Below are positions 9,550-48,730 of a stretch of DNA of 64,000 nucleotides, piece after piece (the stretch's first letter is position 1; every line of letters starts with the position of its first letter). A program made the position numbers and the translations under genes. The stretch lies in contig CP065011.1 in the NCBI GenBank assembly GCA_016699795.1, positions 12,838 to 76,837 on the forward strand, in the 5' to 3' direction. The notes beneath the pieces were generated by a model. The model was given only the letters and a program-made list of their open reading frames with translations, made no database searches and was not told the DNA's origin. Origin of the DNA: Candidatus Moraniibacteriota bacterium (GTDB lineage: Bacteria; Patescibacteriota; Minisyncoccia; Moranbacterales; GCA-2747515).

Positions 9550-10134
9550 ATGGATTCCAAAATTAAAGAAATTCTCGAAAAAATCGACAAACTCCAAAAA
9601 TCTTTACAAAAAGAACAGATCCGTCTTTCAAAAAAATATGGATTCTTCATTCAACAAAAGAAAGTTATATTTCTTGAAAAAATCAAAAAAAGAAATAGAA
9701 CATTCCGCATCCCTGCATGGAAGTATCTTCTACCCAAAAACATACGTCATTTTCTCTCCATTCCCTTCATTTATTCTATGATTATTCCTGCTCTAGTACT
9801 TGATATTTTCATAACTATCTATCATCACACAACATTTCCTCTTTATGGTATTCCCAAAGTAAAAAGAAGTGATTTTATTATATATGATCGAAGATTTCTT
9901 GATTATCTCAATGTTATCCAAAAAATTCATTGCCTTTATTGTAGCTATCTAAATGGACTCCTTGCCTATTCTATGGAAATAGCAGGGCGAACTGAACGCT
10001 ACTGGTGTCCAATAAAATCTTCCTATAATAAAAATGTATTTACTCACAATTGGTACAGAGATTTTGCTGACTATGGAGATCCTGAGGATTGGAAGAATAA
10101 ATTCAATGATCATGAAGTTTTCGAAAAAAAATAG
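9550..10134 (+). CDS. Hypothetical protein (194 aa), one hydrophobic segment, Cys-rich C-terminal half
   Basis: ORF with coiled-coil N-term; CLYCSY...YWCP cysteines; followed by hairpins. Confidence 0.4.
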   Translation: MDSKIKEILEKIDKLQKSLQKEQIRLSKKYGFFIQQKKVIFLEKIKKRNRTFRIPAWKYLLPKNIRHFLSIPFIYSMIIPALVLDIFITIYHHTTFPLYGIPKVKRSDFIIYDRRFLDYLNVIQKIHCLYCSYLNGLLAYSMEIAGRTERYWCPIKSSYNKNVFTHNWYRDFADYGDPEDWKNKFNDHEVFEKK

Positions 10135-10265: not shown

Positions 10266-11090
10266 TTATTCACTCACAGATGAATCCTTTTTCTCTTTTT
10301 TTGATACTTTCTTTCCTTCTTTCTTAATAACTTCTTTCTTAACTTCTTTCTTCTTTGATTCCTTTTTAGGTTCTTCGGTTTCTTTTTGAGAATTTTTTAA
10401 ACCATTTTCTCTCTTAGTACCAGAAATCATTTCTCCTAAAGATGCTCCTTCTTTCATTTCCTTTTTCTTTGCTTCAGATCCTTTGATCTTATTCTCTAAA
10501 AATTCCAATGTTTGAAACAATTGATTTACTTTCAAAATAAGAGCATCCATTTTTGTATTTAAAGCATCTATTTGAAAAGTAACCTTCTCAATTCCATCAT
10601 TATTATTCTTTCTCTCATTCGAAAAGGAAGGAGAAAAATCTCTTCGAGAAAAATTACCCTGTTCACGATCATCTCGTCCACTTGAATGTTCTCTTCTTGG
10701 ACGTTCATCTCGTCCATTTGAATATTCTCTTCTTGGGCGTTCATCTCTTCTTTCATGACCTCCAAAATTTTCTTGTTTTTCTCCAAAACACTCACTGCAA
10801 TATACAGGTTTTTCTCCCGTTGGACGAAAAGGAACCTGACAAGATTTTTGACATTTTGCGCAAGTAGCTCGAAACATTTCTCTTGGACTTTCGTCATGGT
10901 TTCGATCAAAGCTGGAGCGCTCTCCTCCTCCAAAACTTGGTCTTCTTGAGCCAAAACCAGATCTTTCTCCTCCTCCAAAGCTTGGTCTTCTCGCTCCAAA
11001 GCTAGGTCTTGATGAACCCCCTCTTTCAAATCCTCCACCTCCACCACCTCTTCTTCCTGAAAAACCTCCTGATCTCTTAAAATCACCCAT
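10266..11090 (-). CDS. RGG/low-complexity protein with CxxC-x17-CxxC zinc ribbon and K/E-rich tail
   Basis: N-term GGFSGRRGGGGGGFERGG and repeated RRPSFGGGERS units; zinc ribbon CAKC-(17 aa)-CSEC; repeated ERPRRE(Y/H)S(N/S)GRD units; coiled-coil then KKE-rich C-terminus. Confidence 0.6.
   Translation of the reverse strand: MGDFKRSGGFSGRRGGGGGGFERGGSSRPSFGARRPSFGGGERSGFGSRRPSFGGGERSSFDRNHDESPREMFRATCAKCQKSCQVPFRPTGEKPVYCSECFGEKQENFGGHERRDERPRREYSNGRDERPRREHSSGRDDREQGNFSRRDFSPSFSNERKNNNDGIEKVTFQIDALNTKMDALILKVNQLFQTLEFLENKIKGSEAKKKEMKEGASLGEMISGTKRENGLKNSQKETEEPKKESKKKEVKKEVIKKEGKKVSKKEKKDSSVSE
10667..10760. repeat. In-frame tandem repeat, 36-bp period, ~2.6 copies (encodes ERPRREYSNGRD-type units)
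   Basis: gatcatctcgtccacttgaatgttctcttcttggac (10667) / gttcatctcgtccatttgaatattctcttcttgggc (10703) / partial copy at 10739. Confidence 0.7.
10910..11012. repeat. In-frame tandem repeat, 45-bp period, ~2.3 copies (encodes RRPSFGGGERSxFxx units)
   Basis: ctcctcctccaaaacttggtcttcttgagccaaaa (10922) vs ctcctcctccaaagcttggtcttctcgctccaaag (10967). Confidence 0.65.
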
Positions 11091-11220
11091 AGAAATATAT
11101 TACGCTAGCTTTAAATTACGAACTCTTTTCTATTAATAACATAAAACAAAGAAAAAATCAAGTCGATAAAATATCTCCTCTATCTTAAGGGATAAATAAA
11201 TTAAAAAACAAAGAAATAAT

Positions 11221-11595
11221 CTACAAAACAATAGCGTCTGTTGGACATCGATCTTTCGCCTCCTTCACTAAAATACTCTCAGTATCTTTTTGTGATAATA
11301 CTTCAGCTTTATGAGAATTTCGATCAAAGAAGAAATTCCTTGGAGCAATTCGAACGCATTTTCCACAACCAATACATTTATTAGAAATAATGTGTAATTT
11401 ATTTTTATCAGACAAGTTTTCATTATCAATACTATTTTCTTTTTCTTCATCCAGAAGCACTATTTCTTTTTCAGTTTTTATTACATTTTCTTCCTTTTGA
11501 TTTTCCTTTAGAAAATATCTAGAAAAAACTAAACCCCCAGAAATTAAAACGATAAGAGAGAGCACTCCTTGAGAATACTTTTTTGAAAATTTCAT
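11221..11595 (-). CDS. Signal-anchored single-cluster [4Fe-4S]-type ferredoxin
   Basis: N-terminal hydrophobic segment (GVLSLIVLISGGLVF), acidic linker, then CIGCGKC...(34 aa)...CP ferredoxin motif (4 Cys only). Confidence 0.65.
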   Translation of the reverse strand: MKFSKKYSQGVLSLIVLISGGLVFSRYFLKENQKEENVIKTEKEIVLLDEEKENSIDNENLSDKNKLHIISNKCIGCGKCVRIAPRNFFFDRNSHKAEVLSQKDTESILVKEAKDRCPTDAIVL

Positions 11596-11740
11596 TTCTT
11601 TCTATTATTTGATTATTTCTTTTCCTTGCAAAGAATGATACGTAAAAACCACAGATAAACTTTCAAAAAAATATTTCTTCTTAAAATTGATTCCTTCAAA
11701 ATAAAAAACTACTTTCAACCACATTTAGAAGAAATAAATA

Positions 11741-13315
11741 TTACACATCATTTCCGGAATAAGAAAGATTAAAACTTTTATTAATCAAAGGAAAATCTGG
11801 AACAATATTATTAAGACCAGCATCTTTCAGGGCTGACCAGTTTACAAACGAAGGATCTCTCGGTGCAACCCGATTCAGTTGACCTTTAGCATCAGTAGTT
11901 ACAAAATAAATAATTTCTCCCCGCCAACCTTCTACAGCACTTACGGTTAAGAAATTCTTTTTGCACACAATTTTACCCTTAGCAACAGCATTAATTCGTC
12001 CTTCTGGTAATGAATTCAAGGCCTTTTGAATAATTTTTATTGCAACACGTACTTCTTCAATACGAACATGAAATCTCGCATATACATCTCCACTTGTACG
12101 AAGCACCATTTTCTTAGGAAAAAGTTCACTATAAGCCGCATAAGGATTATCAATTCGAACATCTTTTGCCAAACCAGCCGCCCTTCCAGCAACACCCATA
12201 GCACCACAATCTTTGGCATTTTGGGTCGAGAATATACCGGTATCCTTGAGTCGATTCAATACTGAGGCACTATTTTCAGCAATTTCAATTACTTCAGAAA
12301 AATCTTTACTTAAATTTTTCAAATCTTTAGACAATCTTTCTTTTTCTTTCTTATCAATATCTTTCGTTACTCCTCCAATAATATTAACATTCCGAAGAAA
12401 TCGACTTTTAGTAATTCTTTCGTTCATTCGCATAACAATTTCTCGTAATCGAGCTCCTTGTGCTCCTCCGAAATTAAAACCAACATCTGTCATAATAGCG
12501 CCGATATCGCCAAGATGATTGGCTAGCCTTTCCATTTCAGCATAAATAACTCGAAGATAAAGTCCACGTTTTGGAACATCTGTACTACTCAACGTTTCCA
12601 ATGCCTGACAAAATGCAAGACTATGACTGAAAGAACTATCGCCAGAAATTTTTTCCGATAGTTTCACACCTTCTTCAAAAGAAAGTTTTTCGAATAATTT
12701 TTCACTTCCTTTGTGCGTAAATCCGAGACGTGGTTCCAATGAAACAATACGCTCTCCAGCAACGCTAAAACGAAAATGGCCAGGCTCAATAATACCCGCA
12801 TGAATAGGTCCAACAGGAATTTCATAGATGCCCTCTCCTTTCACTTCATAAAAATCATACGTTCCTTTTGCCTCTGCTGGTTTCGTGTTCAATTCAAAAT
12901 CTTTTCTTAAAGGAAAAACATCTTCTGGCCAATTTTCATGCAATATCAATGGCCTAGAATCATAAATATCTACAGACTTAAGACCAAAAAATGTCTGTAT
13001 TTTTCTCTCGTAATTCAAAGCCTCATGAACAATAAGAGCAATTGAAGGGAATTCTGTTGTGTCTTTTAAACTAAGAAAAGGTATAATATAAGCATTTTCT
13101 TGAGGTAAGCCGAAAATATACCAAATTTTAAAACAACCATTTTCTTTTCTTTCATCAGTTGCTGTAATAAGTTTCAAAGAGAAATTTTTATTGTGATACA
13201 AATCCTGAACAAAATCTTTTATCTCTGTAACGGAAATTTCAAAAACTCCGATAGTATCAAAAATTTCAAGTTTTGCCTTCTTAGGAATAATTTCTTGTAT
13301 TTTTTCTTTAATCAT
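11741..13315 (-). CDS. Fused NuoC/NuoD-like (HycE/HyfG-type large subunit-like) protein lacking NiFe-site cysteines
   Basis: N-terminal 30-kDa (NuoC)-like segment, then PVGPIHAGIIEPGHFRF (NuoD/EchE signature); position of RxCGxCxxxH reads KISGDSSFSHS and position of DPCxxC reads DPSFVN, so all four Ni-Fe cysteine ligands are replaced. Confidence 0.75.
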   Translation of the reverse strand: MIKEKIQEIIPKKAKLEIFDTIGVFEISVTEIKDFVQDLYHNKNFSLKLITATDERKENGCFKIWYIFGLPQENAYIIPFLSLKDTTEFPSIALIVHEALNYERKIQTFFGLKSVDIYDSRPLILHENWPEDVFPLRKDFELNTKPAEAKGTYDFYEVKGEGIYEIPVGPIHAGIIEPGHFRFSVAGERIVSLEPRLGFTHKGSEKLFEKLSFEEGVKLSEKISGDSSFSHSLAFCQALETLSSTDVPKRGLYLRVIYAEMERLANHLGDIGAIMTDVGFNFGGAQGARLREIVMRMNERITKSRFLRNVNIIGGVTKDIDKKEKERLSKDLKNLSKDFSEVIEIAENSASVLNRLKDTGIFSTQNAKDCGAMGVAGRAAGLAKDVRIDNPYAAYSELFPKKMVLRTSGDVYARFHVRIEEVRVAIKIIQKALNSLPEGRINAVAKGKIVCKKNFLTVSAVEGWRGEIIYFVTTDAKGQLNRVAPRDPSFVNWSALKDAGLNNIVPDFPLINKSFNLSYSGNDV

Positions 13316-14760
13316 ATCAGTAACATTTTAACAGCATCGTTAATTAACGTTGATAAAAATAATGGCATATAAAAACTCAAAAGAATAAAAATGCCCATAA
13401 GAATACAAGGAGGAATGATTAACCAAATACTTTCATTCTTTCTTTCAGCCCCCACTAGCTTTTTACCAAAAACCATAACGCTCACATGCTTGAAAAATCC
13501 AATAAACAAAATAGCCATAAGAAGTAAGGCGAAAATACTTACGAAAGGATGTGTTTCTATGCCTTGGGAAAGAATGATCATTTTACTGAAAAATACACCT
13601 AGTGGCGGAGCACCTGTAATAGCAAAAAAGCCTAGTAAAAAAACAACGCTCGTAACAGGTAGTGTACTCAAAATTCCCCTAATATTAGGAATTTTTGTGG
13701 AACCATAGGTAAGAAATATTGTTCCGGCAGAAAGAAACAATGTTGATTTGAGCAAAGAATGGTAAATCATATGAAAAATAGCACCGAGAGCACCTATGCC
13801 CCCGAGTCCAAAACCGAGAGCCATAATACCCATATTTTCAATACTTGAATAAGCAAGTAGTCGTTTGTAGTTTTTTTGGGTCAAAATAACTAACGTAGCA
13901 ATAAGAATTGAAAGTAAACCGAAAATAATTAATAAATTTTGAGTAAAATTTTCATTGACAGCTATATCAGTAATAACTTTAAATCGCAAAACAATAACCA
14001 ATGCCACATTCAACAAAACACCTGAAAGTAAAGCGCTGATTGGCGCAGGAGCCTTGCTGTGTGCATCTGGCAACCACGTATGCATTGGCGCTAAACCAAC
14101 CTTCGTTCCATAGCCAATTAATACAAATATAAAAGCAATTTTTGCAATCAAAGGATCAAGTTGTGTTGCATTTTCCGTAAGAGATTCCCAACTTATAAAT
14201 CCATTTTCATTTGCCGAATGTGTGGAAGTAAAATATAAAAGAGTTCCCAAGAAACCAAGAAGTAGTCCGACAGAATTAATAATCAGATATTTCCAAGCCG
14301 CCTCGATAGCAGATGGTTTATTATAAAAACTAATAAGAAATGCCGTAGAAAGTGTCGTGGCTTCAATAGAAATCCAAGCAAATATAGGGTTATTAGCAGA
14401 AATTGCCAATACCATAGCTATCAAAAAAAGATTTAATAAAACAAAATATTGCCTTACTCGAGTGAATCCAACTGCTTTTTTTTCGGTTTCTTTTCGTAGA
14501 TAGGGAATAGAATATATAACTACAACAAATCCTACACAAGAAATTAAAAGTAATAAAATAGCACCCAAAGCGTCTACAGAAAAAATTGAAAACGAAGAAT
14601 ATTTTCCAGAAAGACTCACCTTTAAGGCAATATTTATTGACTCTACAAAAACAATAAAAGAAGAAATAACCGAAGTTAACTCAATGATGATTCGGTTCTT
14701 TGTTAAAAGCCCTACACCCGCACTGATACATAAGAAAATGAAAATAAATAATAATTCCAT
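13312..14760 (-). CDS. NuoN/NuoM/HyfD-F/MrpD-like antiporter-type membrane subunit
   Basis: 482 aa, ~14 TM helices, conserved proton-pump-family segments (GYGTKVGLAPMHTWLPDAHSKAPAPISALLSGVL); 4-nt overlap with downstream gene. Confidence 0.7.
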   Translation of the reverse strand: MELLFIFIFLCISAGVGLLTKNRIIIELTSVISSFIVFVESINIALKVSLSGKYSSFSIFSVDALGAILLLLISCVGFVVVIYSIPYLRKETEKKAVGFTRVRQYFVLLNLFLIAMVLAISANNPIFAWISIEATTLSTAFLISFYNKPSAIEAAWKYLIINSVGLLLGFLGTLLYFTSTHSANENGFISWESLTENATQLDPLIAKIAFIFVLIGYGTKVGLAPMHTWLPDAHSKAPAPISALLSGVLLNVALVIVLRFKVITDIAVNENFTQNLLIIFGLLSILIATLVILTQKNYKRLLAYSSIENMGIMALGFGLGGIGALGAIFHMIYHSLLKSTLFLSAGTIFLTYGSTKIPNIRGILSTLPVTSVVFLLGFFAITGAPPLGVFFSKMIILSQGIETHPFVSIFALLLMAILFIGFFKHVSVMVFGKKLVGAERKNESIWLIIPPCILMGIFILLSFYMPLFLSTLINDAVKMLLI

Positions 14761-14764
14761 ATTG

Positions 14765-15418
14765 TTAATCTTTTAAACTCTTCATAGAAGTTATATCAAG
14801 TGAACCAAAATGCTTATGTATCATAGAAACAAAAACCGTAGTAATAACAAGCCAAATAAAAATATCAAATATAATACCCAATTGAAACATTAATGATTGC
14901 TCCAGATTAGCAAAAATCGCAAAGGCAACAATGCTATTTTCAAAAGAAAGAATACCAATAATTTGCGAGAGAACACCTTTTCGATTAATAATCAAAAAAA
15001 GTGAAACGAAAATTGAAGAAAGTGCCAAAGCTAATAATGTCTGATTTGCAGGAAGAATTTCAGTCAGAGGAGAAAACTTTTGAGAATGAGCGATGAAAGT
15101 TAATATAGCGATAACCATCAAAGTTAAAGGGGTATTTAAATACGTACTTGCAGAAAAAGTCAGTTCGTATTTTTGAATTAATTTTATAAAAAATAATGAA
15201 GCAACAATAACCTTAACAATCAGCACAAGTAAAGCAATAAAAAGCAAAGAAATATCACCTGTTTCAAAAAAATAACCCAAAAAAAGTATCGTTGTAATTA
15301 TCAAAGATTGAAGACCATATGCCAAAGAAGCTCCTAAATTCTTTTTTGCAATATGTAAAAACACAATAGTGCCGAAGAAAAATATCCCCAAGGAAAGTTG
15401 TAAAGTCAAAATACTCAT
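14765..15418 (-). CDS. HyfE-like small polytopic membrane subunit
   Basis: 217 aa hydrophobic protein, size and position as hydrogenase-4 component E in hyf/mbh-type operons; 4-nt overlap with upstream gene. Confidence 0.45.
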   Translation of the reverse strand: MSILTLQLSLGIFFFGTIVFLHIAKKNLGASLAYGLQSLIITTILFLGYFFETGDISLLFIALLVLIVKVIVASLFFIKLIQKYELTFSASTYLNTPLTLMVIAILTFIAHSQKFSPLTEILPANQTLLALALSSIFVSLFLIINRKGVLSQIIGILSFENSIVAFAIFANLEQSLMFQLGIIFDIFIWLVITTVFVSMIHKHFGSLDITSMKSLKD

Positions 15419-16347
15419 AATCGATAAATGAGGCCAAGTGCCACGACATTAAGAATAAAAGAGGTTAGCAAAAGATCAGGTAATCGAAAAAATCGAAACT
15501 TCGCCATACTTGATTCGATAAGAGCTATAAAGAAGCAGAAAATTCCTATTTTTATCATAAAAACAATAATTCCTATGGCGATAGCCGATATTTCCGCACT
15601 TTGCGCTAAGCCAACGGGGAAGAACAAATTCGCCCCTAATGCAAAAAAAATCAAAAGTTTATTAGAAGAAGCCCATTCCATAAGAGCGAGTCTCTTTCCT
15701 GAATATTCCAAAATCATAGCCTCATGGACCATTGTTAGCTCTAAGTGTGTAGCTGGATTATCAAATGGAAATCGTGATGTTTCAGCAAGAAGAATAATAA
15801 AAAATCCACTAAAAACAAAAAAGACGGAAAGAAAATCTTTTCCTTGCGCAAATATATCAGAACTAGAAATGGCAAATACATCCGTTGTGCCACTTATGAT
15901 AGCTATTACCAAAAGAGAAAAAACAAAACCTCCTTCTGCTAATGCAGAAAGAGTCATTTCTCGGCTAGAACCAAATCCTCCGAAAGCGCTTCCCGTATCC
16001 ATACCAGAAAGTGCCAAAAAAAATGTTCCGATAGCCAAAGTATAAATAATAATAAGAATATCCCCAGTCAATTTATTTTCAAAAAATGATCCAAATAAAG
16101 GAATACTCATACCCACAACAAGAGTTGCTGTGAATATAATAAATGGAGCATAACAAAAAATCCAAGAAGCATCTGTGCTTATAACTTCATCTTTATGAAG
16201 AAGTTTCCATAGATCTCTGTAAGGCTGAAAAATACTTGCACCCCTTCTGTTTTGAAGTATTGCCTTTATCTTTCTTATAATGCCCACACATAAAGGCGAT
16301 ACGAGAGGTACAAAAAGAATTTGAATAATCCAAATAAAGATAGTCAT
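15415..16347 (-). CDS. NuoH/HyfC/HycD-like membrane subunit
   Basis: 310 aa polytopic protein with NuoH-family loop SRFPFDNPATHLELTMVHEAMILEYSG (cf. R-PFD-E-ESEL). Confidence 0.65.
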   Translation of the reverse strand: MTIFIWIIQILFVPLVSPLCVGIIRKIKAILQNRRGASIFQPYRDLWKLLHKDEVISTDASWIFCYAPFIIFTATLVVGMSIPLFGSFFENKLTGDILIIIYTLAIGTFFLALSGMDTGSAFGGFGSSREMTLSALAEGGFVFSLLVIAIISGTTDVFAISSSDIFAQGKDFLSVFFVFSGFFIILLAETSRFPFDNPATHLELTMVHEAMILEYSGKRLALMEWASSNKLLIFFALGANLFFPVGLAQSAEISAIAIGIIVFMIKIGIFCFFIALIESSMAKFRFFRLPDLLLTSFILNVVALGLIYRL

Positions 16348-16349
16348 AA

Positions 16350-18401
16350 TTAGAGTATTATAAATAAAGCTACTATTAAGGCAATAAGTATATAGAGAAT
16401 GTAGACGCTAATATTTCCACTCTGAATATTTTTTGCTCGCAATGAAATCTTCATGAGCAAATCACGCAATGGTTGATAAAAATAAGATTGATTAATATCT
16501 CGAACGCCCAAAGTGACAGCTTTTGATTTTGGTAAATATCTTGTTTCAGAATCATGATATTCAATTTCATGTTGAATGGTTGGTTTCAATATACCCTTGA
16601 AGATAAGAATGATAGATTGAGCGAAACCCGTAGCTGTTATTTCCATGCGTGGCTTTAAATCAGTTCCGCAATCCCAAGTAAGACCCGTCTCTGTTTTTTG
16701 TTCTTTATATATGAGATATCGAACGACACCCACAACAAAAAGAATAGTGATGCCAAAAATTAGAAAAAATACAAGTCCTGAAACGGAAGCAAAGCCATTT
16801 CCCACAAGTATTGTTTGATTTTCTGACAAAGAAACAGCAGAAGATGTTGTTTTGAAAATATCAAGACTTTTTCCTATTTTTTCAAGAAAAAACGTTATCT
16901 TTCCAGAAAATATTCCAAATAAAAGAGATAATACTGCCAATGAACCCATTCCAAAAAGAAGGAAAAATGAAGATTCCTTCGTATGAAAAATTTCTTCACT
17001 TCTTGGTCTAGCTAAAAATGTCACTCCAAAGGCCTTTACAAAACAAGCAAGTGCCAATCCCCCAGTAAATGCAAGTGATCCCACCGCAATCATAAAAATC
17101 CATTTTGCGGAAGAACTTAACATCATAATCCCCTGAAATAATGATTGAAATGTTAACCATTCACTAAAAAATCCATTAAATGGAGGTAGCGCGGATATAG
17201 CCATCGATCCGATCAAAAAGAAAAATGCTGTTTGGGGCATATATTTTATTAAACCACCATATTCTTCCATGTTTCTTGTGTGCGTCTGGCTAATAACCGA
17301 TCCCGCGCTCAAAAAAAGTAAAGATTTGAAAATAGCATGATTTGCGATATGAAAAAGAGTTGCTGTTAAGCCAAGAAGAGCGAGTGAAGGAAAATGTAAT
17401 GAAGAGAAAACAAGAGCACTCCCAAGACCAAGAAGAATAATCCCAATGTTTTCAATACTGTGATACGCCAAAAGTCTTTTTATATCATGTTCAGCAAGTG
17501 CATACAAAACACCAAGAAGAGAAGATACAGCTCCAATAATAAGAATGGCAAGTCCCCACCATACTGGAACAGGTTGAAGAATGTCCAAAAATAATCGAAT
17601 CATCATAAAAATACCTGTTTTGATCATCACGCCCGACATCAAAGCAGAGATATGAGAAGGTGCTGCAGGGTGAGCAGCTGGAAGCCAAATGTGAAATGGA
17701 ACAATACCAGCCTTCGTACCAAATCCAATTATGGCACAAAGAAAAATAATATCTTTCACAAAAAGCGGGACAGCTACAGAACCCAATTTCATGGCTTCAA
17801 AATCAAATGATCCCGTAAATTTATACAACAACAAAAAAGAAATCAAAATAAAAGCTGTTCCAATATGAGTCATAACCAAATACAAAAAACCAGCTTTTAC
17901 ATTATTTTCATCTTTATGGTCATACACAACAAGAAAATAGGAAGCGATCGACATAATTTCCCAAGCAATAAGGAAAAAAATAGCATTCGAAGCAGTTACT
18001 ACAAAAATCATTCCCAAAATAAATAGATGAGAAAAAAATCCCAAAGCTCCGATGCTATATTTTTTATAGAAATGTTTTATATACCCAATACCATAAAAAG
18101 AACAAAAAAGCGTAATCAAAGAAATGATAAAAATAAAGAATGCGGAAAGCATGTCAATACGAAAGGACAATGAAAAGAAAGAAAGTGGTGCTGTCCACAA
18201 AATAAAAGACAAGGAATTTCCAGAAGAAATCATAAAACCAGAAAAAACCAATCCCCAAAGAGATCCTCCTATAGCAAAAAAACTATTCCAAATATTCGCC
18301 AAAACATCATCTTTTTTTACAAGTAAAGAACCCAATGCTCCAACAAAGAAAAGAAGTATCAAAAAAGAAAAACTGATCGGGGATGTAATAATTTCCACCA
18401 T
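16350..18401 (-). CDS. NuoL/HyfB/MrpA-like antiporter-type membrane subunit
   Basis: 683 aa, ~16+ TM helices, proton-pump-family segments (FGTKAGIVPFHIWLPAAHPAAPSHISALMSGVMIKTG). Confidence 0.75.
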   Translation of the reverse strand: MVEIITSPISFSFLILLFFVGALGSLLVKKDDVLANIWNSFFAIGGSLWGLVFSGFMISSGNSLSFILWTAPLSFFSLSFRIDMLSAFFIFIISLITLFCSFYGIGYIKHFYKKYSIGALGFFSHLFILGMIFVVTASNAIFFLIAWEIMSIASYFLVVYDHKDENNVKAGFLYLVMTHIGTAFILISFLLLYKFTGSFDFEAMKLGSVAVPLFVKDIIFLCAIIGFGTKAGIVPFHIWLPAAHPAAPSHISALMSGVMIKTGIFMMIRLFLDILQPVPVWWGLAILIIGAVSSLLGVLYALAEHDIKRLLAYHSIENIGIILLGLGSALVFSSLHFPSLALLGLTATLFHIANHAIFKSLLFLSAGSVISQTHTRNMEEYGGLIKYMPQTAFFFLIGSMAISALPPFNGFFSEWLTFQSLFQGIMMLSSSAKWIFMIAVGSLAFTGGLALACFVKAFGVTFLARPRSEEIFHTKESSFFLLFGMGSLAVLSLLFGIFSGKITFFLEKIGKSLDIFKTTSSAVSLSENQTILVGNGFASVSGLVFFLIFGITILFVVGVVRYLIYKEQKTETGLTWDCGTDLKPRMEITATGFAQSIILIFKGILKPTIQHEIEYHDSETRYLPKSKAVTLGVRDINQSYFYQPLRDLLMKISLRAKNIQSGNISVYILYILIALIVALFIIL

Positions 18402-18402
18402 A

Positions 18403-18945
18403 TTATTTTAATTTAGGAGATGTTTGATCTAAATCTTCAAGAATTTTAAGAAGAGAAAAAAGGATTACTTTGGGAGTTGGAGGATCACCAGGAATTTGAT
18501 AATCCACAGGAATAACAGAATTCACTCCCCCAGAAACAGCGTATGATTCTTTAAAAATTCCCCCATCAATAGCATCATCCCCTACTGCTACAACAATTTT
18601 TGGATTAGGCGTTGCTTTGTAAGCTCGACGTAACGATTCAGCCATATTGCGTGTCACTGGGCCAGTAACAAGTAGCATATCCGCATGTCTTGGAGAAGCC
18701 ACGAAGTGAATTCCGAAACGCTCAAGATCATAAAAGGCATTTGAAAGTGCGACGAGTTCCTGTTCACAAGCATTATCTGAACCAGCATCTACTTGACGAA
18801 TAGCCAAAGAACCTCGAAACAATCGATTTACTTCGTTTTTTATCTTCTTCCCCACCCGTATAACTTCAGTTTCATCAAAATCTTTTCCTTCTGGAGAAAC
18901 TACATTCTTCTGAGTTTTTACTATTTTTAGAAAAAGTTTAAACAT
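18403..18945 (-). CDS. NuoB-like (hydrogenase small-subunit-like) protein lacking all Fe-S cluster cysteine ligands
   Basis: Aligns along its length with NuoB/Nqo6 (ERFGIHFVASPRHADMLLVTGPVTRNM..., NSVIPVDYQIPG), but CCxxE reads DNACE, GxCxxSGG reads VGDDAIDGG and PGCPP reads PGDPP. Confidence 0.75.
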   Translation of the reverse strand: MFKLFLKIVKTQKNVVSPEGKDFDETEVIRVGKKIKNEVNRLFRGSLAIRQVDAGSDNACEQELVALSNAFYDLERFGIHFVASPRHADMLLVTGPVTRNMAESLRRAYKATPNPKIVVAVGDDAIDGGIFKESYAVSGGVNSVIPVDYQIPGDPPTPKVILFSLLKILEDLDQTSPKLK

Positions 18946-19362
18946 AGCCTTATTTTATTAAACAATAAAACCAAACGTCAAAAGAACGTCTGCTCTTTTC
19001 TTAACCATTTTCAAAAGTTAAAAATGTCGGACTGTTTTTGATTCAGTCTCTGTTTTTACAATCATAAAAGAAAATCAAATGTATGATTTCTTAAAAATAT
19101 ACACCTCTTCTAGAGTATCTGCAATTTTTACAATACAAAAAATTGCATGAACTTTCTTTTGCTCTATTTCAAGAAATCTGCTTTATAGACAATCTTCTAT
19201 TACTATAAAATAACTATTTACACTCTTTGAAAACAGTATAGAGAGTTTCTAAAATTTAATCAAACAATATCAAAAAATATTAACTGCAAAGCAAAAAATT
19301 GAGAAATATCATTATCTACTTTTTCTTAACTTTTTTATTTTTAGAAAAAAATGAAGTTTTGT

Positions 19363-19863
19363 TTAATCCAATTCTTTCGTTGGCGGAATTGATGTTGCTA
19401 CTGAGTCTGACCTTGGTAAATCTGTATCTTCTCTTGGCGGAATCGTTGTTGATGACGTGTTTGATGAAGTAGTTATGACCGAAGAAGATGACTCCTTATA
19501 GGTTCGCTTTACAGCAAAATAATAAACAAGAGCCCCGATAAATCCTGTAAAAACAACAAGAATCATCCACATTGCTTTATCTTGAATATTATGTTTAGCG
19601 ATATGAACAATCATCAGTATCCAAAATATAAGAGAAAAAATTCCAAAAGCACCAAATATAAGAAGAAAAAATCCTATTCCCAAACCTAAACCAAGAACCC
19701 CTTTAACCTGATTCTTCAACGCTTCACAAGGAACCTCACTACCATTTACCGTACATTGAGATGCGGCAAGAGAAATGTTATTGGTTACCAAAAACAATGC
19801 AAGGATTAAAAAAGAAAAAATAGCAACATTCTTTTTCATTTTCAACATATATTTTAAATCCAT
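19363..19863 (-). CDS. Hypothetical membrane protein with signal peptide and PLDc_N-like small membrane module, Ser/Thr-rich tail
   Basis: Signal peptide (ILALFLVTNNISLAAS), two Cys, then membrane segment MWMILVVFTGFIGALVYYFAVKR, C-terminal S/T/P-rich region. Confidence 0.4.
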   Translation of the reverse strand: MDLKYMLKMKKNVAIFSFLILALFLVTNNISLAASQCTVNGSEVPCEALKNQVKGVLGLGLGIGFFLLIFGAFGIFSLIFWILMIVHIAKHNIQDKAMWMILVVFTGFIGALVYYFAVKRTYKESSSSVITTSSNTSSTTIPPREDTDLPRSDSVATSIPPTKELD

Positions 19864-37114: not shown

Positions 37115-37528
37115 TTACCTTCTTTTTCTCGCTACACGAAGCCTGGCAAGTTCTTTTTCAAGTTGAGCAGCTACTGTTGCGTATTCTATTTCATTGAGAT
37201 CTTTTCTTTCTTTAGCCTCTTTAGCACGTGCTACAGCTTTTTCTACTCTCTCGATATCTATTTCTTCTGCACGTTCAGCAGTATCAGCAAGTACTGTAAG
37301 TATATTTTTTCCAAATTCCAAAAAGCCACTCGACAAAGCAAGTTCTTCTTTTTTTGAATCTTTAGCAAGAACAAGTCGAATTTCTCCTGATCGCAAAACT
37401 CCAACATAAGGAATATGATCAGCTAAAATGGTAATCTCCCCATCCACAACAGGAAGTGTTACCTGTACAACATCACAATCCATTACTTTTCGCTCTGGTG
37501 TGGCAAGAATAAAATGAAATGATTTCAT
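37115..37528 (-). CDS. atpC: F-type ATP synthase subunit epsilon
   Basis: MKSFHFILATPERKVMDCDVVQVTLPVVDGEITILADHIPYVGVL; last gene of atp operon. Confidence 0.9.
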   Translation of the reverse strand: MKSFHFILATPERKVMDCDVVQVTLPVVDGEITILADHIPYVGVLRSGEIRLVLAKDSKKEELALSSGFLEFGKNILTVLADTAERAEEIDIERVEKAVARAKEAKERKDLNEIEYATVAAQLEKELARLRVARKRR

Positions 37529-37593
37529 AGATTCACAAATTTTTAGAAGTTATAGAAAGGCTAACTATCTATTACTTACTCAAAGCACATACA

Positions 37594-38988
<1,395 letters not shown>

Positions 38989-39031
38989 CTACGTTATAAA
39001 ATAGTATGCGTAATAACATTATAAATATTTT

Positions 39032-39979
39032 TTATTCCAGAGCCGCCCGTCCAGCACTTATTTCTGCAATTTCTTGCGTTATCTTTGCCTGTCTAATTCG
39101 GTTATATACCAACATAAATTCATCAGCAATCTCTCCAGCAGCATCGGTTGCATTCTTCATGGCAACCATTCGCGAAGCTTCCTTTGATGCATTTGACTCT
39201 AAAACCATATGATATATCTGCGTTCGAATAAGTGCGGGCAGTAATGCATCCAAAACAACTTCCGGGGATGGTTCAATTTTATATTCATACGAAGGGCCAG
39301 TAAGTCCAATTTCTTTTTGTAAGATATCCATTTCAGCAAGTTGTTTCTCAAATTCTGAAACGCTTACTGGTAAAATTTGACGCGTCTTCGTTTCTTGTTT
39401 CAGGGCAGAAATATAATCCGTATAGACAACAACAATCTTGTCATATCGTCTTTCTAAATACCAATCAATAAGAGTATTAGCAACTGTTCGCGCTTCATCA
39501 AAACTTGGCGTATGCATCAAATCAGGAAAAGAAGCAATAAGATTTTTTCCTAATGTTGTCGCCATTTTTTCTGCTTTTCGACCAATAGCCACAACATCTA
39601 CGATGCGATCTTTTTTTGATAATTCCTTTTTAACTTCTCCAGAAAAAGCAAATAATCGATCTTCTTGAGAAAGGAGAGAGCGAAATTTTTTCTGTACTTG
39701 TGTGTTAAAACCTCCACAAAGACCTCTATTAGAAGCAATAACTACAATTAAAACATTTGAAATTTCTCGCGCATCAAGAAGTGGGTGTTTTCTATTCTTC
39801 ATTGCTCGTGACATATTTGCCAAAATACTCCAAGCATTATGAGCATAAGGACGAATATCCAGAACATTCTTCACAGCACGTTGCATTTTCGCAGCTGAAA
39901 CCATCTGCATAGCACGCGTCACCTTCTGCGTGTTCCTAATGGAAGTCACTCTTGATCGTATTTCACGCGCTGATCCCAT
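39032..39979 (-). CDS. atpG: F-type ATP synthase subunit gamma
   Basis: MGSAREIRSRVTSIRNTQKVTRAMQMVSAAKMQRA N-terminus, C-terminal helix ...QEIAEISAGRAALE. Confidence 0.9.
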   Translation of the reverse strand: MGSAREIRSRVTSIRNTQKVTRAMQMVSAAKMQRAVKNVLDIRPYAHNAWSILANMSRAMKNRKHPLLDAREISNVLIVVIASNRGLCGGFNTQVQKKFRSLLSQEDRLFAFSGEVKKELSKKDRIVDVVAIGRKAEKMATTLGKNLIASFPDLMHTPSFDEARTVANTLIDWYLERRYDKIVVVYTDYISALKQETKTRQILPVSVSEFEKQLAEMDILQKEIGLTGPSYEYKIEPSPEVVLDALLPALIRTQIYHMVLESNASKEASRMVAMKNATDAAGEIADEFMLVYNRIRQAKITQEIAEISAGRAALE

Positions 39980-40098
39980 AAGAAATTATTTAATCGTATA
40001 AAAACACTATTTTTTAGATTCCAAAAATATGTAAGACACCCCCTTTTCTATCAAATATTTTTCTTCTTTATGATAGATAAAGTTTTATACATATTTTT

Positions 40099-41607
40099 CT
40101 ACTGTTCCAGATATACTTCTTTAAATTCTTTTATCGCCTTTTTAAGAAGTTCCTCAATTTCTTCCGTTATCACCTTTTCCTTCGTAATCTTCTCAACAAT
40201 ATTTTTTTTCTGAGAATCAAAATAAGTCAAAAGCTCCTGTTCCCATACGCGAACCTTTTCAACAGGAACTTCATCAATATATCCCCGAGTAACGGCGTAC
40301 AATGAAATAACTTGCTGAGAAACTGTTAAGGGAGAATACTGATCTTGTTTTAAAATTTCTACAGTCCTTCTTCCTCTCTCAAGTTGACTTCGCGTTTTTT
40401 CATCAAGATCAGAACCAAATTGTGCAAAAGCTTCAAGCTCTCTAAATTGAGCAAGGTCGAGACGAAGTTGACCAGCCACTTGCTTCATAGCTTTAATCTG
40501 AGCCGATGATCCTACGCGAGAAACTGAAAGTCCCACATTTACTGCGGGCCGAATGCCTTTATAAAATAAATTACTTTCCAAATAAATTTGTCCGTCAGTA
40601 ATAGAAATAACATTCGTTGGAATATAAGCACTTACATCTCCAGCTTGAGTTTCAATAATAGGTAATGCTGTTATAGATCCCCCTCCATATTCTTTATTAA
40701 GTCGAGCACTTCTTTCTAGAAGTCGTGAATGCAAATAAAAAACATCTCCTGGATAAGCTTCTCGTCCTGGTGGGCGACGAAGAATAAGAGAAATCTGACG
40801 ATATGCCCAAGCATGTCTTGAGAGATCATCATAGACAACTAGAACATCTTTCCCTTGAGCCATGAAATATTCTCCGATAGCGCATCCTGCGTACGGGGAA
40901 AGAAAGGATAAACTCGCAGCCTCTGATGCTCCAGCACTTACGACTACGGTATATTCCATAGCTCCACGACTTTCTAATTCTGCAACAATTCTTGCAACTT
41001 TAGATTCTTTCTGTCCTACAGCCACATAAACACAAATCATATTCTGCCCCTTCTGATTAATGATAGCGTCAATAGCTACAGCAGTTTTTCCTGTTTGTCG
41101 ATCACCAATGATAAGCTCTCTTTGACCTCGTCCGATAGGAATCATAGCGTCAATAGCTTTGATACCAGTTTGAACTGGTTGATTCACTGCTTCACGAGTC
41201 ACCACTCCTGGAGCAACTTTTTCAATAGGCATCCGTTCTTTTGCGGGAATTTCTCCCTTTCCATCTTTCGGAGCTCCAAGTGGATCAACGACACGACCAA
41301 TAATCTTTTCACTCACAGGAATAGATAAAATTTTTCCCGTAGCACGAACCATATCTCCTTCAGCAACATCTCCGGATGATCCTAAAATCATCACACCAAC
41401 CTGACTTTCTTCCAAGTTAAGAACTACACCAAAAAGACCAGATTGAAATTCTACCATTTCCATAATGGCAACTCTGGAGAGACCGGAAATGCGAGCGACG
41501 CCATCTCCTGATTCTAAAACAATTCCAACAGGATCCTCTTTTGCTTTGGGATCAAATGCTTGAATCTGTTTCTGAATATAATCAATAATAGGATCTGTAT
41601 GTTGCAT
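40099..41607 (-). CDS. atpA: F-type ATP synthase subunit alpha
   Basis: GDRQTGKT Walker A, 502 aa, full alpha architecture. Confidence 0.97.
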
Positions 41608-41657
41608 ATATGTGCATTATAGTTAGAAAAATTAAGGGAAATAGAAGAAATCTTCTT

Positions 41658-42053
41658 TTATTTCATATATGTTTTTAATACTCGAAATCTTCTGGCGATA
41701 CTTTCATCATAACCTTTCTCTCCAAAGTGAATTTGCGCTCCTCCACCAAGAAGTCTATTTTCCTCCCATACAATATTCATTTTTGGATTTTTTCTTACAG
41801 CCTGAATCTTTTTTTCTAAATCACTTTGTTCTTTTGGAGAAAATGTATAAGCAGTCTGGAGTCGAGCCGTTTCCGTAATTTGATCTTTTTCCTGATATTC
41901 CCAATACAACCGTTTAATTTTTGAAAAAAGTCCCAAATGATGATTTCTTCTCAAAATAAAAATAAATTTTTTCGAGATCATGGCGGTATCTTCAGGATAC
42001 TTTTTTATAAGTACCCTTAAAATTTGAATATATTGTTTTGGAGTAATTTTCAT
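41658..42053 (-). CDS. atpH: F-type ATP synthase subunit delta (short form, ~131 aa)
   Basis: Position between atpF and atpA; C-terminus LLGGGAQIHFGEKGYDESIARRF matches delta (OSCP) C-terminal motif; start at internal ATG 42053. Confidence 0.6.
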   Translation of the reverse strand: MKITPKQYIQILRVLIKKYPEDTAMISKKFIFILRRNHHLGLFSKIKRLYWEYQEKDQITETARLQTAYTFSPKEQSDLEKKIQAVRKNPKMNIVWEENRLLGGGAQIHFGEKGYDESIARRFRVLKTYMK

Positions 42054-42108
42054 ACAGATAAAAACAAAAATGCACAATAACTAACTATACAATACTATCT
42101 TCTTATGA

Positions 42109-42615
42109 CTAGGAACTCTTTTTCGACATATCCAAAAGAATATCCTCAATAAACTTTTTATCTTCAGATGAATCCCAACGCTTTCCCACGACCTTTTCTG
42201 CGGCAAAAACAACCAACTTCGCTATATCTGACTTGAAACGAATAATGTATGCGCGTCGTTCTTCTTCCGCCTGGCTTTTAACTTCTTGAAGAATTTCTAT
42301 TGATTCTTCTTTTGCCTTTTCAAGAAAAACATCTGCAGAACGTTTAGCTTCTTTATGTGCTTCTGAAAGAATTTCTTTTGCTTCTCGTTTTGCATCAAGA
42401 ACAATTTTCTCCGCTTCAATTTTTACTTTTTTATGAAGCTCTTCAGACTTTTTTGCATGCTCAAGACCCCTTTCAATTTTCTTTCTTCGTTCCTCCAAAT
42501 ATTTTAAAATTGGAGTAAATACAAATCGTCGAAGAACATAGAAAAAAATAAGAAAGTTAATCAATTGTGCAAGAAAAAGTCGCCAATCAATTCCTAGTTT
42601 GGAAAGAATTTCCAT
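42109..42615 (-). CDS. atpF: F-type ATP synthase subunit b
   Basis: N-terminal TM then long charged helix; position in operon. Confidence 0.8.
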   Translation of the reverse strand: MEILSKLGIDWRLFLAQLINFLIFFYVLRRFVFTPILKYLEERRKKIERGLEHAKKSEELHKKVKIEAEKIVLDAKREAKEILSEAHKEAKRSADVFLEKAKEESIEILQEVKSQAEEERRAYIIRFKSDIAKLVVFAAEKVVGKRWDSSEDKKFIEDILLDMSKKSS

Positions 42616-42624
42616 ACAAAAAAG

Positions 42625-42921
<297 letters not shown>

Positions 42922-43010
42922 TTAAAAAGAGAATGGGAATATAATTAACTGACAAATTATTCTTTCTTCACTTCTTCTTTTTTTGAAAGAAAAAGTATTT
43001 AAAAGAACAA

Positions 43011-43763
43011 TCAATGTTCCGCCTTCACTGTTGCCATCTTAATAAAAACTGCTGTAAGCATAGCAAATACCAATGCCTGAATAAAACCAACAAAAAGCTC
43101 CATAAAAAGAAATGGGATAGGTACGAAATAAGGAACAAGCACGAGCATAACCATAAGAAGAACCTCTCCAGCAAAAATATTTCCAAACAATCGAAAAGAG
43201 AAAGAGAGAATTTTAGATACTTCACTGACCAATTCTAAAAATCCAACAAAAGTTCCAATCCCATAAGGTTTCTTAAATGGACTTACAAAGAACTTTCCAA
43301 GATAGGAAGAGGCGCCCAAGGCAGAAACACCGAAATAATGAATAGCAAAAAGAGCGACTGCCGTCAAAGCTAATGTCATATTCATATCTGCCGAAGCACT
43401 TCGGATAAAAGGTATAAATTCTTTTTCTCCATGGACAATTTCAAACATTCCCACCGTTCCCATTCCGGGCAGAACTTCAAAAAGATTAATAACCCAAATA
43501 AAAATAAATATAGAAGCGATAAGGGGAAATGTTCTTCGAGAAAGATTTTTATCCTGCATAACATCATTCACCAAATCCAAGAGAAAATCTATCAAAGATT
43601 CAAAAGCATTTTGAATCTTCTTTGGAACTAAAGAAATTTTCTTCTGAACAAAAAGAGAGATAGCAATAACAAATCCACTCAAAGACAACGTTGCCAATAA
43701 TGTATTGGTAAGAGGAAATGTTCCAATAAAACCAAGAATTTCCGGAGAAAGGGAAATGTGCAT
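43011..43763 (-). CDS. atpB: F-type ATP synthase subunit a
   Basis: FRLFGNIFAGEVLL hallmark with essential Arg; 5-6 TM helices. Confidence 0.9.
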   Translation of the reverse strand: MHISLSPEILGFIGTFPLTNTLLATLSLSGFVIAISLFVQKKISLVPKKIQNAFESLIDFLLDLVNDVMQDKNLSRRTFPLIASIFIFIWVINLFEVLPGMGTVGMFEIVHGEKEFIPFIRSASADMNMTLALTAVALFAIHYFGVSALGASSYLGKFFVSPFKKPYGIGTFVGFLELVSEVSKILSFSFRLFGNIFAGEVLLMVMLVLVPYFVPIPFLFMELFVGFIQALVFAMLTAVFIKMATVKAEH

Positions 43764-43787
43764 AACTATTCAAAAATAATAAATTCT

Positions 43788-44048
43788 CTACTTTTTTTTC
43801 TTTTTTTCAATATCTTGCTCAAGAGAACGTAATACGTGAAGAGTTCTTCTATAAACCAAGATTGCTGTTCCTACAATAGAAAAGAAAAGGCTCAAAAGAA
43901 AGAATATAGGAGAAGTTTTAAATAAAAAATCTATATATTTTCCCACCATTACTCCCAAGATTAAAGGAATAACGATAATATATCCTAACTCCCAAGCAAA
44001 ATTCAAAGCACTCCAAGGTGTGTCTTCTTTTTTCTTCAAAGAAATCAT
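43788..44048 (-). CDS. AtpZ/AtpI-like small membrane protein (first gene of atp operon)
   Basis: 86 aa, two TM helices, directly upstream of atpB. Confidence 0.55.
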   Translation of the reverse strand: MISLKKKEDTPWSALNFAWELGYIIVIPLILGVMVGKYIDFLFKTSPIFFLLSLFFSIVGTAILVYRRTLHVLRSLEQDIEKKKKK

Positions 44049-47744: not shown

Positions 47745-47848
47745 ATATCTCTTTTTCTAAAATTGACAAATTTAGTTTTTTGTGTTATATATAATCCGCT
47801 CTTATGCCCTTTAACATCTGCTCCCTATCCCCTAGAGGAATTACTTCC

Positions 47849-48352: not shown

Positions 48353-48366
48353 TAGGTTTCGTATCA

Positions 48367-48400
48367 AAAGGGGAAAAACATTTCCCCTTTTTTTCTTTTT
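48367..48400 (+). terminator. Intrinsic terminator
   Basis: aaaggggaaa-aaca-tttccccttt followed by ttttttcttttt. Confidence 0.7.
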
Positions 48401-48418
48401 AAAGAATTCGGAGCTAAA

Positions 48419-48667: not shown

Positions 48668-48730
48668 ATTCGCTTTTTTTTGAATATTGATAATCTTTTT
48701 TTAAATCATCAATACTCTTATTTTATTATT

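Follow-up and report, generated by a model that had tools for sequence, protein, structure and literature searches.

A six-gene Ehr-type operon of a Moranbacteria genome without canonical NiFe and [4Fe-4S] ligand sets, and the linkage of its clade to ATP synthase genes

The complexes of the energy-converting-hydrogenase-related (Ehr) class, defined by Marreiros et al. in 2013 (as cited in PMC6349859), are without the ligands of a NiFe site and have no assigned function (PMC6349859, PMC10284858). Ehr sequences of the Candidate Phyla Radiation (CPR) were described by Jaffe et al. (2020) as a monophyletic subclade within Ehr that is without metal-binding Cys, that "likely cannot interact with H2" and that is patchily distributed in CPR (PMC7304191). 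The present study concerns a six-gene operon of this kind in a 64,000-nt stretch of DNA (hereafter, the window) from a metagenome-assembled genome (MAG) of Candidatus Moranbacteria/Moraniibacteriota, a tiny bacterium of the symbiotic type, with a contig of 1,186,598 bp (1.19 Mb). By its sequence, the operon is assigned to a six-subunit Ehr complex. An earlier interpretation of the same DNA (hereafter, the sequence-only reading) had also proposed the Ehr class, and this assignment was borne out by the absence of all four NiFe ligands and by a pocket motif common to 77 of 80 related loci; the complex is less new than that reading implied, because CPR Ehr have already been published (Jaffe et al, 2020; PMC7304191). 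What appears to be new, in that we did not find it published, is that only the CPR-type clade lost the proximal cluster, that it did so in a single event, that constraint was unrelaxed thereafter and that the clade is linked to ATP synthase genes. The searchable literature yielded no account of the small subunit in such complexes, nor of an ATP synthase link; Marreiros et al. (2013) may have noted the cluster loss.

ORF (open reading frame) calling in the window placed the six genes contiguously on the minus strand from 18945 to 11741 (about 7.2 kb), with junctions, in the order from the small-subunit gene to the large-subunit gene, of +1, +2, -4, +4 and -4 nt. Their products were identical, from the first to the last residue, to GenBank QQS61337-QQS61332, which confirmed the six adjoining ORFs of the sequence-only reading and, because the identity covers the full length, excluded the wrong starts, mis-framing and frameshifted pseudogenes that it had named as possible faults. 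The first gene (18403..18945, minus strand) encodes a NuoB/HycG/MbhJ-like small subunit of 180 aa (QQS61337), identified by alignments and by Pfam PF01058 (Oxidored_q6/NuoB) at 93 bits, and is followed on the same strand by the gene for a HyfB/HycC/NuoL-like antiporter-like subunit of 683 aa (16350..18401; NF005086 at 667.1 bits versus a cut-off of 667) and that for a NuoH/HyfC/HycD-like membrane anchor of 310 aa (15415..16347; PF00146, NADHdh, and alignment to HycD 7z0s_D). The fourth gene (14765..15418, minus strand) encodes a HyfE-like small membrane subunit of 217 aa, which matched NF008556 weakly, at 49.9 bits and below the cut-off, and its position in the operon is kept in all related loci. 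The fifth (13312..14760, minus strand) encodes a HyfF/NuoN-like antiporter-like subunit of 482 aa (NF005044 at 424.6 bits; alignment to MbhH), and the sixth (11741..13315, minus strand) a fused NuoC-NuoD/HycE-like large subunit of 524 aa with PF00329 and PF00346 (Complex1_30kDa and Complex1_49kDa). Thus, the homologies given earlier to NuoB, HyfB, NuoH/HyfC, HyfE and a NuoC-NuoD fusion agreed with Pfam and NCBIfam, and only the fifth gene had to be renamed from HyfD to HyfF, the HyfF profile scoring 424.6 bits versus 197.7 bits for HyfD.

The best relatives of solved structure were HycG, HycC, HycD and HycE of the Escherichia coli formate hydrogenlyase (7Z0S) and the Pyrococcus MBH (6CFW), with E-values of 3e-68 for HycE (7z0s_E), 2e-31 for HycG, 1e-31 for MbhJ, 6e-79 for HycC and 2e-37 for HycD. 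Profile searches of the window proteins detected no hyp, NuoE/F/G or HycF/NuoI genes in the 64 kb, as had been read from the sequence before, and NuoE/F/G and NuoI were also absent from the operons of related loci. No Mrp small-subunit family of Pfam or NCBIfam matched any of the six operon genes. A promoter and terminator scan of 10900-19500 gave 39 promoter-like sites versus 32.8 +/- 6.5 expected and 4 terminator-like sites versus 5.5 expected.

The large subunit has none of the four Cys ligands of a NiFe site. Alignment to HycE and MbhL placed the four ligand positions at S224, S227, S518 and G521. The former L1 motif RxCGxCxxxH reads KISGDSSFSHS (residues 222-232; 12620..12652, minus strand), in which the Cys residues have become S224 and S227 and in which D226 and H231 are invariant in the large-subunit family. 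The counterpart of the L2 motif DPCxxC in the HycE alignment is NLSYSG (residues 516-521; 11753..11770, minus strand), which is invariant across the family and carries S518 and G521 in place of Cys. The sequence-only reading had taken DPSFVN (11840..11857, minus strand) for this C-terminal motif; DPSFVN aligns instead to RAPSFVNL of Nqo4 and REPTFPNL of MbhL, a conserved motif without ligands, so that the motif had been mis-mapped while the loss of both C-terminal Cys was called correctly. An ungapped alignment to Nqo4 of T. thermophilus (2fug_4; chain residue = query minus 138) set His38 and Tyr87, which we take to be the quinone ligands of complex I (T. thermophilus numbering), against I176 and G225, and the complex I quinone ligands are thus absent from the large subunit according to this alignment. 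E177 preserves the Glu of the EPGHFR motif that serves in proton transfer.

The small subunit has also lost its canonical [4Fe-4S] ligand set, although one Cys remains. Residue alignment to MbhJ (6cfw_J), HycG (7z0s_G) and NDUFS7 identified D57, C60, D124 and D154 as the four former cluster-ligand positions; the N2-ligand columns by alignment to NDUFS7 are A59, C60, D124 and D154. The peptide DAGSDNACEQE (residues 53-63; 18757..18789, minus strand) corresponds to GSCNGCxxE of hydrogenases and CCxxE of complex I, with the first Cys replaced by D57 and the second kept as C60; GDDAIDGG (residues 122-129; 18559..18582, minus strand) corresponds to GxCxxxGG, with Cys replaced by D124; and PGDPP (residues 152-156; 18478..18492, minus strand) corresponds to PGCPP, with Cys replaced by D154. 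All five peptides quoted in the sequence-only reading (these three, KISGDSSFSHS and DPSFVN) were found at the coordinates given here. Its statement that every cofactor Cys is lost was wrong for the small subunit, since the CxxC/CC motif retains its second Cys in C60, which 120 of 121 sequences share, whereas its conclusion that neither a NiFe site nor an N2-type cluster could form holds for the NiFe site and for the canonical four-Cys cluster.

Column statistics were taken from these 121 small subunits, namely, the 120 closest homologues and the query. D57 and D124 were found in 121/121 and C60 in 120/121, position 154 was Asp in 88 and Asn in 33, and DAGSDNACEQE was invariant throughout. In the clade as a whole, the patterns at the four ligand positions were DCDD, DCDN, TCDD, SCDD, DCGD, SEGD, TEGD, SEDD and others, the D124 position being G, E or A in deeper members, and about 25 diverse cluster-less representatives from a search of 1.84 billion cluster representatives added NEGD, DADN, DVDD, DEDS, SAES and the like. 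Of the ligand changes, only that of C154 to Asp is found in almost all of the cluster-less clade. Therefore, the description of the changes as systematic Cys-to-Asp substitutions applies to three small-subunit positions in the crown of the clade only; deeper members vary, and the large subunit has Ser/Ser/Ser/Gly. The replacements are consistently acidic or polar, yet not fixed, and the pattern speaks for a polar cavity with carboxylates, water or cations and against an obligatory Asp3Cys metal centre. D123 and D127 are also common in four-Cys relatives, and only D124 is new. An EF-hand-like DxDxDG calcium loop was considered for GDDAIDGG and rejected, the pattern being a mismatch on inspection. 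AlphaFold2 monomers had mean predicted local distance difference test scores (pLDDT) of 64.6 for the small and 74.0 for the large subunit, and confidence was lowest at the former cofactor loops (residues 55-58 and 134-141 of the small subunit; residues 124-204 and 500-524 of the large subunit).

To place this complex among its relatives, 80 loci were fetched via the large subunit from species-representative genomes and 80 via the small subunit from metagenomes, in each case from among the matches listed. Two collection scans confirmed at least 591 and at least 588 stretches with relatives, counts that include four-Cys Ehr. The pocket ISGD[ST][ST]xxH ... NKSFNLSYSGND was common to 77/80 large-subunit loci, the NiFe ligands being lost in all 77, and those that share it include Ehr of Nitrospirota, Rokubacteria, Acidobacteria, Thaumarchaeota and Firmicutes; the true CGxC/CxxC ligands were present in the other three (Thermincola, a Negativicutes MAG and Desulfotomaculum), which were used as the outgroup. 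The sample comprised 158 small subunits, in 110 of which the cluster Cys are all four retained and in 48 of which they are not. Many of the four-Cys small subunits are of greater length and rich in Cys, features that may point to a fused domain of the ferredoxin type.

In a neighbour-joining tree of 115 large subunits, the cluster-less loci formed one clade without any four-Cys member within it, and its sister in this tree was a four-Cys Ehr-type clade of Nitrospirota, Rokubacteria and others. Because all cluster-less loci fall in one clade, the tree indicates that the proximal cluster was probably lost once, in one mostly CPR clade. The source labels of the clade are mostly those of CPR bacteria: Moran-, Magasanik-, Falkow-, Davies-, Nomura-, Staskawicz-, Peregrini- and Saccharibacteria and Paceibacterota. 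Cluster-less operons were also seen in a few MAGs that bear other labels, namely, Firestonebacteria, Fibrobacteria, Endomicrobiales, Thermoleophilia, Bdellovibrionales and Chloroflexi (L002, L003, L005, L009, L011 and P0223), labels that may reflect either gene transfer or mis-binning.

The loss of the cluster was not followed by decay. The large-subunit family alignment has a mean column identity of 75% with the former NiFe pocket invariant, and identity across many CPR lineages is 62-78% with invariant motifs. In the cluster-less clade, conservation is highest in the small subunit, with a mean identity to the window of 66% versus 54-62% for the other five, and the Fe-S-containing family shows the same ranking of subunit conservation. 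Besides the ligands, the only systematic switches between cluster-less and four-Cys sequences are I64L (small subunit) and P139G (NuoH-like subunit); there is none in the large subunit. On this comparison, the six subunits are under purifying selection and not decaying, with constraint unrelaxed after cluster loss.

The membrane arm is intact. Alignment to HycC (7z0s_C) and MbhH (6cfw_H) showed that the HyfB-like subunit retains the canonical channel residues E148, K230, H237, H244, K261, H351, H355 and K359; the HyfF-like subunit has E133, K220, H227, H334 and K338, the HyfE-like subunit the invariant E160 and N161, and the NuoH-like anchor the conserved acidic residues E130, E138, E189, D196, E203, E209, E214, E224 and E278. 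The Glu of transmembrane helix (TM) 5, the Lys of TM7 and the Lys of TM12 of MrpA/MrpD-type subunits are present in both the HyfB-like and the HyfF-like subunits. The key residues (E148/K230/K261/K359 of the HyfB-like, E133/K220/K338 of the HyfF-like and E160 of the HyfE-like subunit, and the acidic residues of the NuoH-like subunit) are invariant in cluster-less and Fe-S-containing relatives, and the intact antiporter-like membrane arm of the sequence-only reading is thus upheld by both the alignments and the conservation. One position was seen to differ: the central Lys of TM8, present in MbhH, HycC and the HyfB-like subunit, is Asn251 in the HyfF-like subunit (14008-14010, minus strand), in cluster-less and four-Cys Ehr alike, and the second antiporter-like module may for this reason be non-canonical.

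The cluster-less clade is further distinguished by its neighbourhood. Of the cluster-less loci, 12/48 have F1Fo ATP synthase genes in the flanks that were fetched, as opposed to 0/110 among the four-Cys loci (Fisher p=2e-7), and all 12 are among the 47 loci other than that of the window. With a rough chance rate of ~3.5% per locus in a 1 Mb genome, the binomial test gave p=7e-8. Both p-values overstate independence because the sampled loci share ancestry. One further locus with an incompletely read small subunit (L007) also adjoins an atp operon. The end of atpC precedes the small-subunit gene on the same strand by 10 (L091), 13 (L090), 131 (L096), 133 (L088) and 258 bp (L050), and the gaps of 10 and 13 bp would be too short for a terminator; the atp genes and the complex are apparently co-transcribed in some cases. 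The gap is ~1 kb in L098 and L010, the atp operon lies directly downstream in L113, and the atp genes are divergent, convergent or flanking in L102, L085 and L008. The linkage occurs in both basal (SEGD/TEGD) and crown (DCDD) sub-lineages, and, apart from the atp subunits, no specific neighbour recurs beside cluster-less operons. Recurrent ABC-ATPase and TatD neighbours, tried as partners, were judged to be generic or atp-associated. In the window, a complete operon for the F1Fo ATP synthase (atpI-like, B, E, F, H, A, G, D and C, by Pfam; 37115..44048, minus strand) lies 18 kb upstream on the same strand and is a candidate functional partner. Its c-subunit (42625-42918, minus strand; ORF and sequence) and those of six linked loci have no Gln in helix 1 and have Glu-Ala, not Glu-Ser/Thr, in helix 2, and a Gln in helix 1 with Glu-Ser/Thr in helix 2 is the Na+-binding signature. 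A Na+-coupled ATP synthase was rejected on these motifs, and the ATPase of the window and of the linked loci is probably proton-coupled.

CPR bacteria are thought to be fermentative and without a respiratory chain. Their use of an ATP synthase without a generator of the proton gradient is an acknowledged puzzle, for which one proposal is reverse operation that energises antiporters or controls pH (PMC11665869, PMC8080830). We lean, at somewhat less than an even chance, towards the interpretation that the Ehr-type complex is a redox-independent, gradient-coupled proton or cation/proton translocator that shares an ion circuit with the proton-type F1Fo ATPase. Electron transfer would be impossible in such a complex, because the NiFe site, the canonical Fe-S site, the quinone ligands and any conserved subunit for electron input are missing from it, and it would then be neither a hydrogenase nor a ferredoxin- or NADH-driven pump. 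The membrane arm, consisting of the two antiporter-like, the HyfE-like and the NuoH-like subunits, would still conduct ions, since it keeps every canonical Glu, Lys and His of the proton pathways. Where a cell ferments and has no respiratory chain, the proton gradient would be built by the ATPase, and the complex would use or balance this gradient in the homeostasis of pH or cations. The peripheral arm, which is strongly conserved, may act as a gate or trigger, in which the carboxylates D57, D123, D124 and D154, together with C60, would occupy the old cluster position and have their charge set by protonation or cation binding, not by reduction. Both of the roles proposed in the sequence-only reading, ion translocation and metal binding, are still plausible, and the ATP synthase linkage favours the former.

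Several points weigh against a translocator of this kind. We know of no Ehr with demonstrated transport activity. Adjacency to atp genes is seen in only about one quarter of the sampled loci, the shared ancestry of which weakens the statistics as stated above, and the two operons of the window are 18 kb apart. A six-gene operon of 7.2 kb would also be a costly antiporter for a 1.19 Mb genome when single-gene antiporters exist. The peripheral arm and the former NiFe pocket are as conserved as in Fe-S relatives, which fits a ligand-binding or catalytic role better than that of a passive cap. The carboxylate trigger is speculative, the AlphaFold2 monomers being of low confidence at the loops concerned, and the replacement residues vary at all four positions (D/T/S, C/E/A/V, D/G/E and D/N/S). 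Finally, Na+/H+ exchange by Mrp, MBH and MBS depends on an Mrp-type Na+ module (MrpB/C/E/F/G, MbhA-C/F) (PMC8165549); the operon has no such module, and therefore cation/proton antiport would need a different cation path.

The conservation of the pocket leads to the alternative that survives best, a non-redox catalytic or primary energy converter, which we consider rather unlikely. In such a converter, the pocket (S224, D226, S227, H231, S518, E177 and H180) and/or the carboxylate-plus-Cys site would bind a substrate or metal and be coupled to ion translocation in one of two modes, the reaction generating the gradient for the adjacent ATP synthase or the gradient driving the reaction. Catalysis by complex-I-type modules that is coupled to the proton motive force without redox chemistry has a precedent: the second mode would resemble the CO2 hydration of cyanobacterial NDH-1/CupA and of DabAB complexes, which is driven by antiporter-like subunits. 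The former NiFe pocket is invariant in cluster-less and Fe-S Ehr without any large-subunit switch at the loss of the cluster, the small subunit stayed the most conserved, and a large operon has been retained in a minimal genome, all of which would be understandable for a catalyst, as would the linkage to an ATP synthase in bacteria that have no known gradient generator. Such a catalyst, however, has no candidate substrate, no conserved partner enzyme in the neighbourhood and no known catalytic motif in its sequence, and the residues at the former cluster site vary in the clade, which is unusual for a catalytic metal site.

A bolder form, which we regard as doubtful, is that the complex is the missing partner of the CPR ATP synthase. 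The redox trigger, made up of the NiFe site and the proximal Fe-S cluster, would have been replaced by a carboxylate site responsive to protonation, a cation or a ligand, and the complex would either generate the gradient by a non-redox reaction or convert the gradient into mechanical or chemical work at the former NiFe pocket. If this is true, the complex would be without precedent in nature as a complex-I-like energy converter that has lost every redox cofactor, and it would be a natural "redox-dead" model of the coupling between the peripheral arm and the membrane arm in complex I.

It is improbable, in our estimation, that the site is a non-canonical redox centre in which an Fe-S cluster of unusual kind, or else a mononuclear metal, has D57, C60, D124 and D154 as its ligands and is fed by a downstream ferredoxin. 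Asp can ligate Fe-S clusters in some proteins, C60 is kept in 120/121 sequences with the three Asp conserved in the crown of the clade, and a [4Fe-4S] ferredoxin gene does follow the operon in the window. This gene (11221..11595, minus strand; QQS61331), which the sequence-only reading did not mention, lies 145 bp downstream of the large-subunit gene and encodes a membrane-anchored ferredoxin of 124 aa with an N-terminal TM helix and a single [4Fe-4S] domain (Fer4_13, 48 bits). As a conserved partner, however, it was rejected, having no homologue in 160 related loci, and from this comparison it is probably not part of the complex. The clade also has TCDD, SCDD, DCGD, DCDN, SEGD, TEGD and SEDD at the ligand positions, where Gly and Asn are not equivalent ligands, and neither an acceptor site (the NiFe and quinone ligands being gone) nor a HycF/NuoI-type relay is encoded.

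That the operon is an evolutionary relic, namely, a hydrogenase-like operon that was gained by horizontal transfer, no longer functions and is heading for deletion, would account for the lost redox cofactor sites and for the patchy CPR distribution (Jaffe et al, 2020; PMC7304191), but it is scarcely credible and effectively refuted by conservation, as there are no frameshifts or stops, the junctions are coupled, identity is 62-78% with invariant motifs and invariant membrane residues, and hundreds of intact homologues (including four-Cys Ehr) exist beside the copy kept in a 1.19 Mb genome.

The complex would bear on more than this genome. To our knowledge, every member of the complex I/membrane hydrogenase superfamily that has been characterised and possesses a peripheral arm drives ion translocation by a redox reaction at the NuoB-NuoD-NuoH junction. 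A widespread, strongly conserved lineage that has the junction and the pump but no redox cofactor could be a natural experiment on the debated coupling mechanism, and a complex-I-like translocator next to the atp operon is a concrete, testable candidate for the ion circuit of the CPR ATP synthase. The family comparison also shows that "Ehr" is a heterogeneous class: most of its members have retained the proximal cluster and are perhaps oxidoreductases still, while those of the CPR-type clade cannot be. Because they cannot, the labels "hydrogenase 4 subunit" and "NADH-quinone oxidoreductase subunit B" are misleading for the metabolic reconstruction of these organisms.

Some features of the relatives were recorded in addition. 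Two Ehr- or hydrogenase-type operons stand side by side in L040 and L055 (tandem pairs), at L003:10505-15709 and at L018:9140-13772; L003 has a CPR-clade-type operon, with the small-subunit gene cut by the contig start, and a second, divergent operon. An ArsR-family helix-turn-helix regulator gene lies directly upstream of 18 four-Cys Ehr operons (for example, L060:4026-4388), at a median gap of 1 bp and on the same strand in 17/18, whereas none was seen in the cluster-less clade; this neighbour hints at a metal, metalloid or sulfur signal to which the Fe-S-containing Ehr respond. A pyridine-nucleotide-disulfide oxidoreductase-rhodanese fusion of the CoA-disulfide/persulfide reductase type was found a few kb from four-Cys Ehr at L012:7129-8814 (a Nitrospira MAG) and at two other loci, and, together with the ArsR regulator, recalls the sulfane-sulfur chemistry of MBS.

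In the window, the ORF at 10266-11090 (minus strand) encodes a protein of 274 aa, the N-terminus of which is rich in Gly and Arg (RGG-type repeats); the protein also has a treble-clef zinc finger (PF23477) and a tail rich in Lys and Glu. At 8767-9396 (minus strand), a ferric-reductase-like/MsrQ-like heme-b membrane protein is encoded (PF01794, 34 bits; NF003831, 33.8 bits, below the cut-off), which is followed by two ORFs without a family match (8119-8757, minus strand, 212 aa; 6916-8088, minus strand, 390 aa). The MsrQ-like protein, the two ORFs and the membrane ferredoxin could form a small transmembrane electron-transfer module in an organism that has no respiratory chain. As partners of the complex, the MsrQ-like protein and its adjoining ORFs found no support, since they are not recurrent near related operons. 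The anaerobic ribonucleotide reductase NrdD, a radical-SAM enzyme (Radical_SAM and Fer4_12), probably the NrdD activase, and the regulator NrdR are encoded at 47040-51339 (minus strand), a gene set consistent with an anaerobic lifestyle. A ComEC-type competence domain (45305-46348) and a metallo-beta-lactamase domain (44452-45333), both on the minus strand, are in two overlapping ORFs, which could represent a split gene or a frameshift. ORFs without a Pfam match are those at 24685-26307 (minus strand, 540 aa), 9550-10134 (plus strand, 194 aa), 62360-63121 (minus strand, 253 aa) and 47804-48352 (plus strand, 182 aa), the first two of which also have no NCBIfam match, and the other genes of the window are housekeeping genes. 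Every 2 kb bin has a negative GC skew, the minus strand carries most of the long ORFs, and an Rfam scan of the 64 kb window detected no tRNA, rRNA or other family above threshold.

Compared with known systems, the complex agrees with Ehr in having a large subunit that is homologous to group-4 NiFe hydrogenase/NuoD and without NiFe Cys, co-encoded with NuoB-, NuoC- and NuoH-like and antiporter-like subunits. It differs from most Ehr, of which 110/158 sampled keep four Cys, in that its clade is without the proximal cluster and any other Fe-S subunit, and in that this clade is linked to ATP synthase genes, which four-Cys Ehr are not (0/110). The group 4 [NiFe] hydrogenases (Hyf/Hyc and MBH) are resembled in a gene set like hyfB, C, E, F, G and I and in the kept E177, but the L1/L2 ligands and the four proximal-cluster Cys are missing from the window complex; the operon is also without the HycF/HyfH and HyfA Fe-S subunits and HyfD of Hyf/Hyc, with no hyp genes in the window, and without the Mrp-type Na+ module of MBH. 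Complex I shares with it homologues of NuoB, NuoC, NuoD, NuoH and NuoL/M/N and the conserved antiporter-like Glu/Lys/His, whereas the N2 cluster, the quinone ligands and NuoA, E, F, G and I are absent here. MBS/MBX (6U8Y) is likewise hydrogenase-derived, with the NiFe site lost and ion translocation kept, but it retains Fe-S clusters, of which the proximal cluster is the catalytic site, and an Mrp-type Na+ module. The Mrp antiporter, in contrast to the complex described here, is without a NuoB/C/D/H-type peripheral module and has the Na+ module (MrpB, C, E, F and G) that is missing from the operon. With no redox cofactors and with MrpA/MrpD-type subunits, to which the antiporter-like subunits gave PDB matches (7qru and 6z16; E-values from 6e-40 to 1e-22), Mrp would nevertheless be, by analogy, the closest counterpart for the proposed mode of action.

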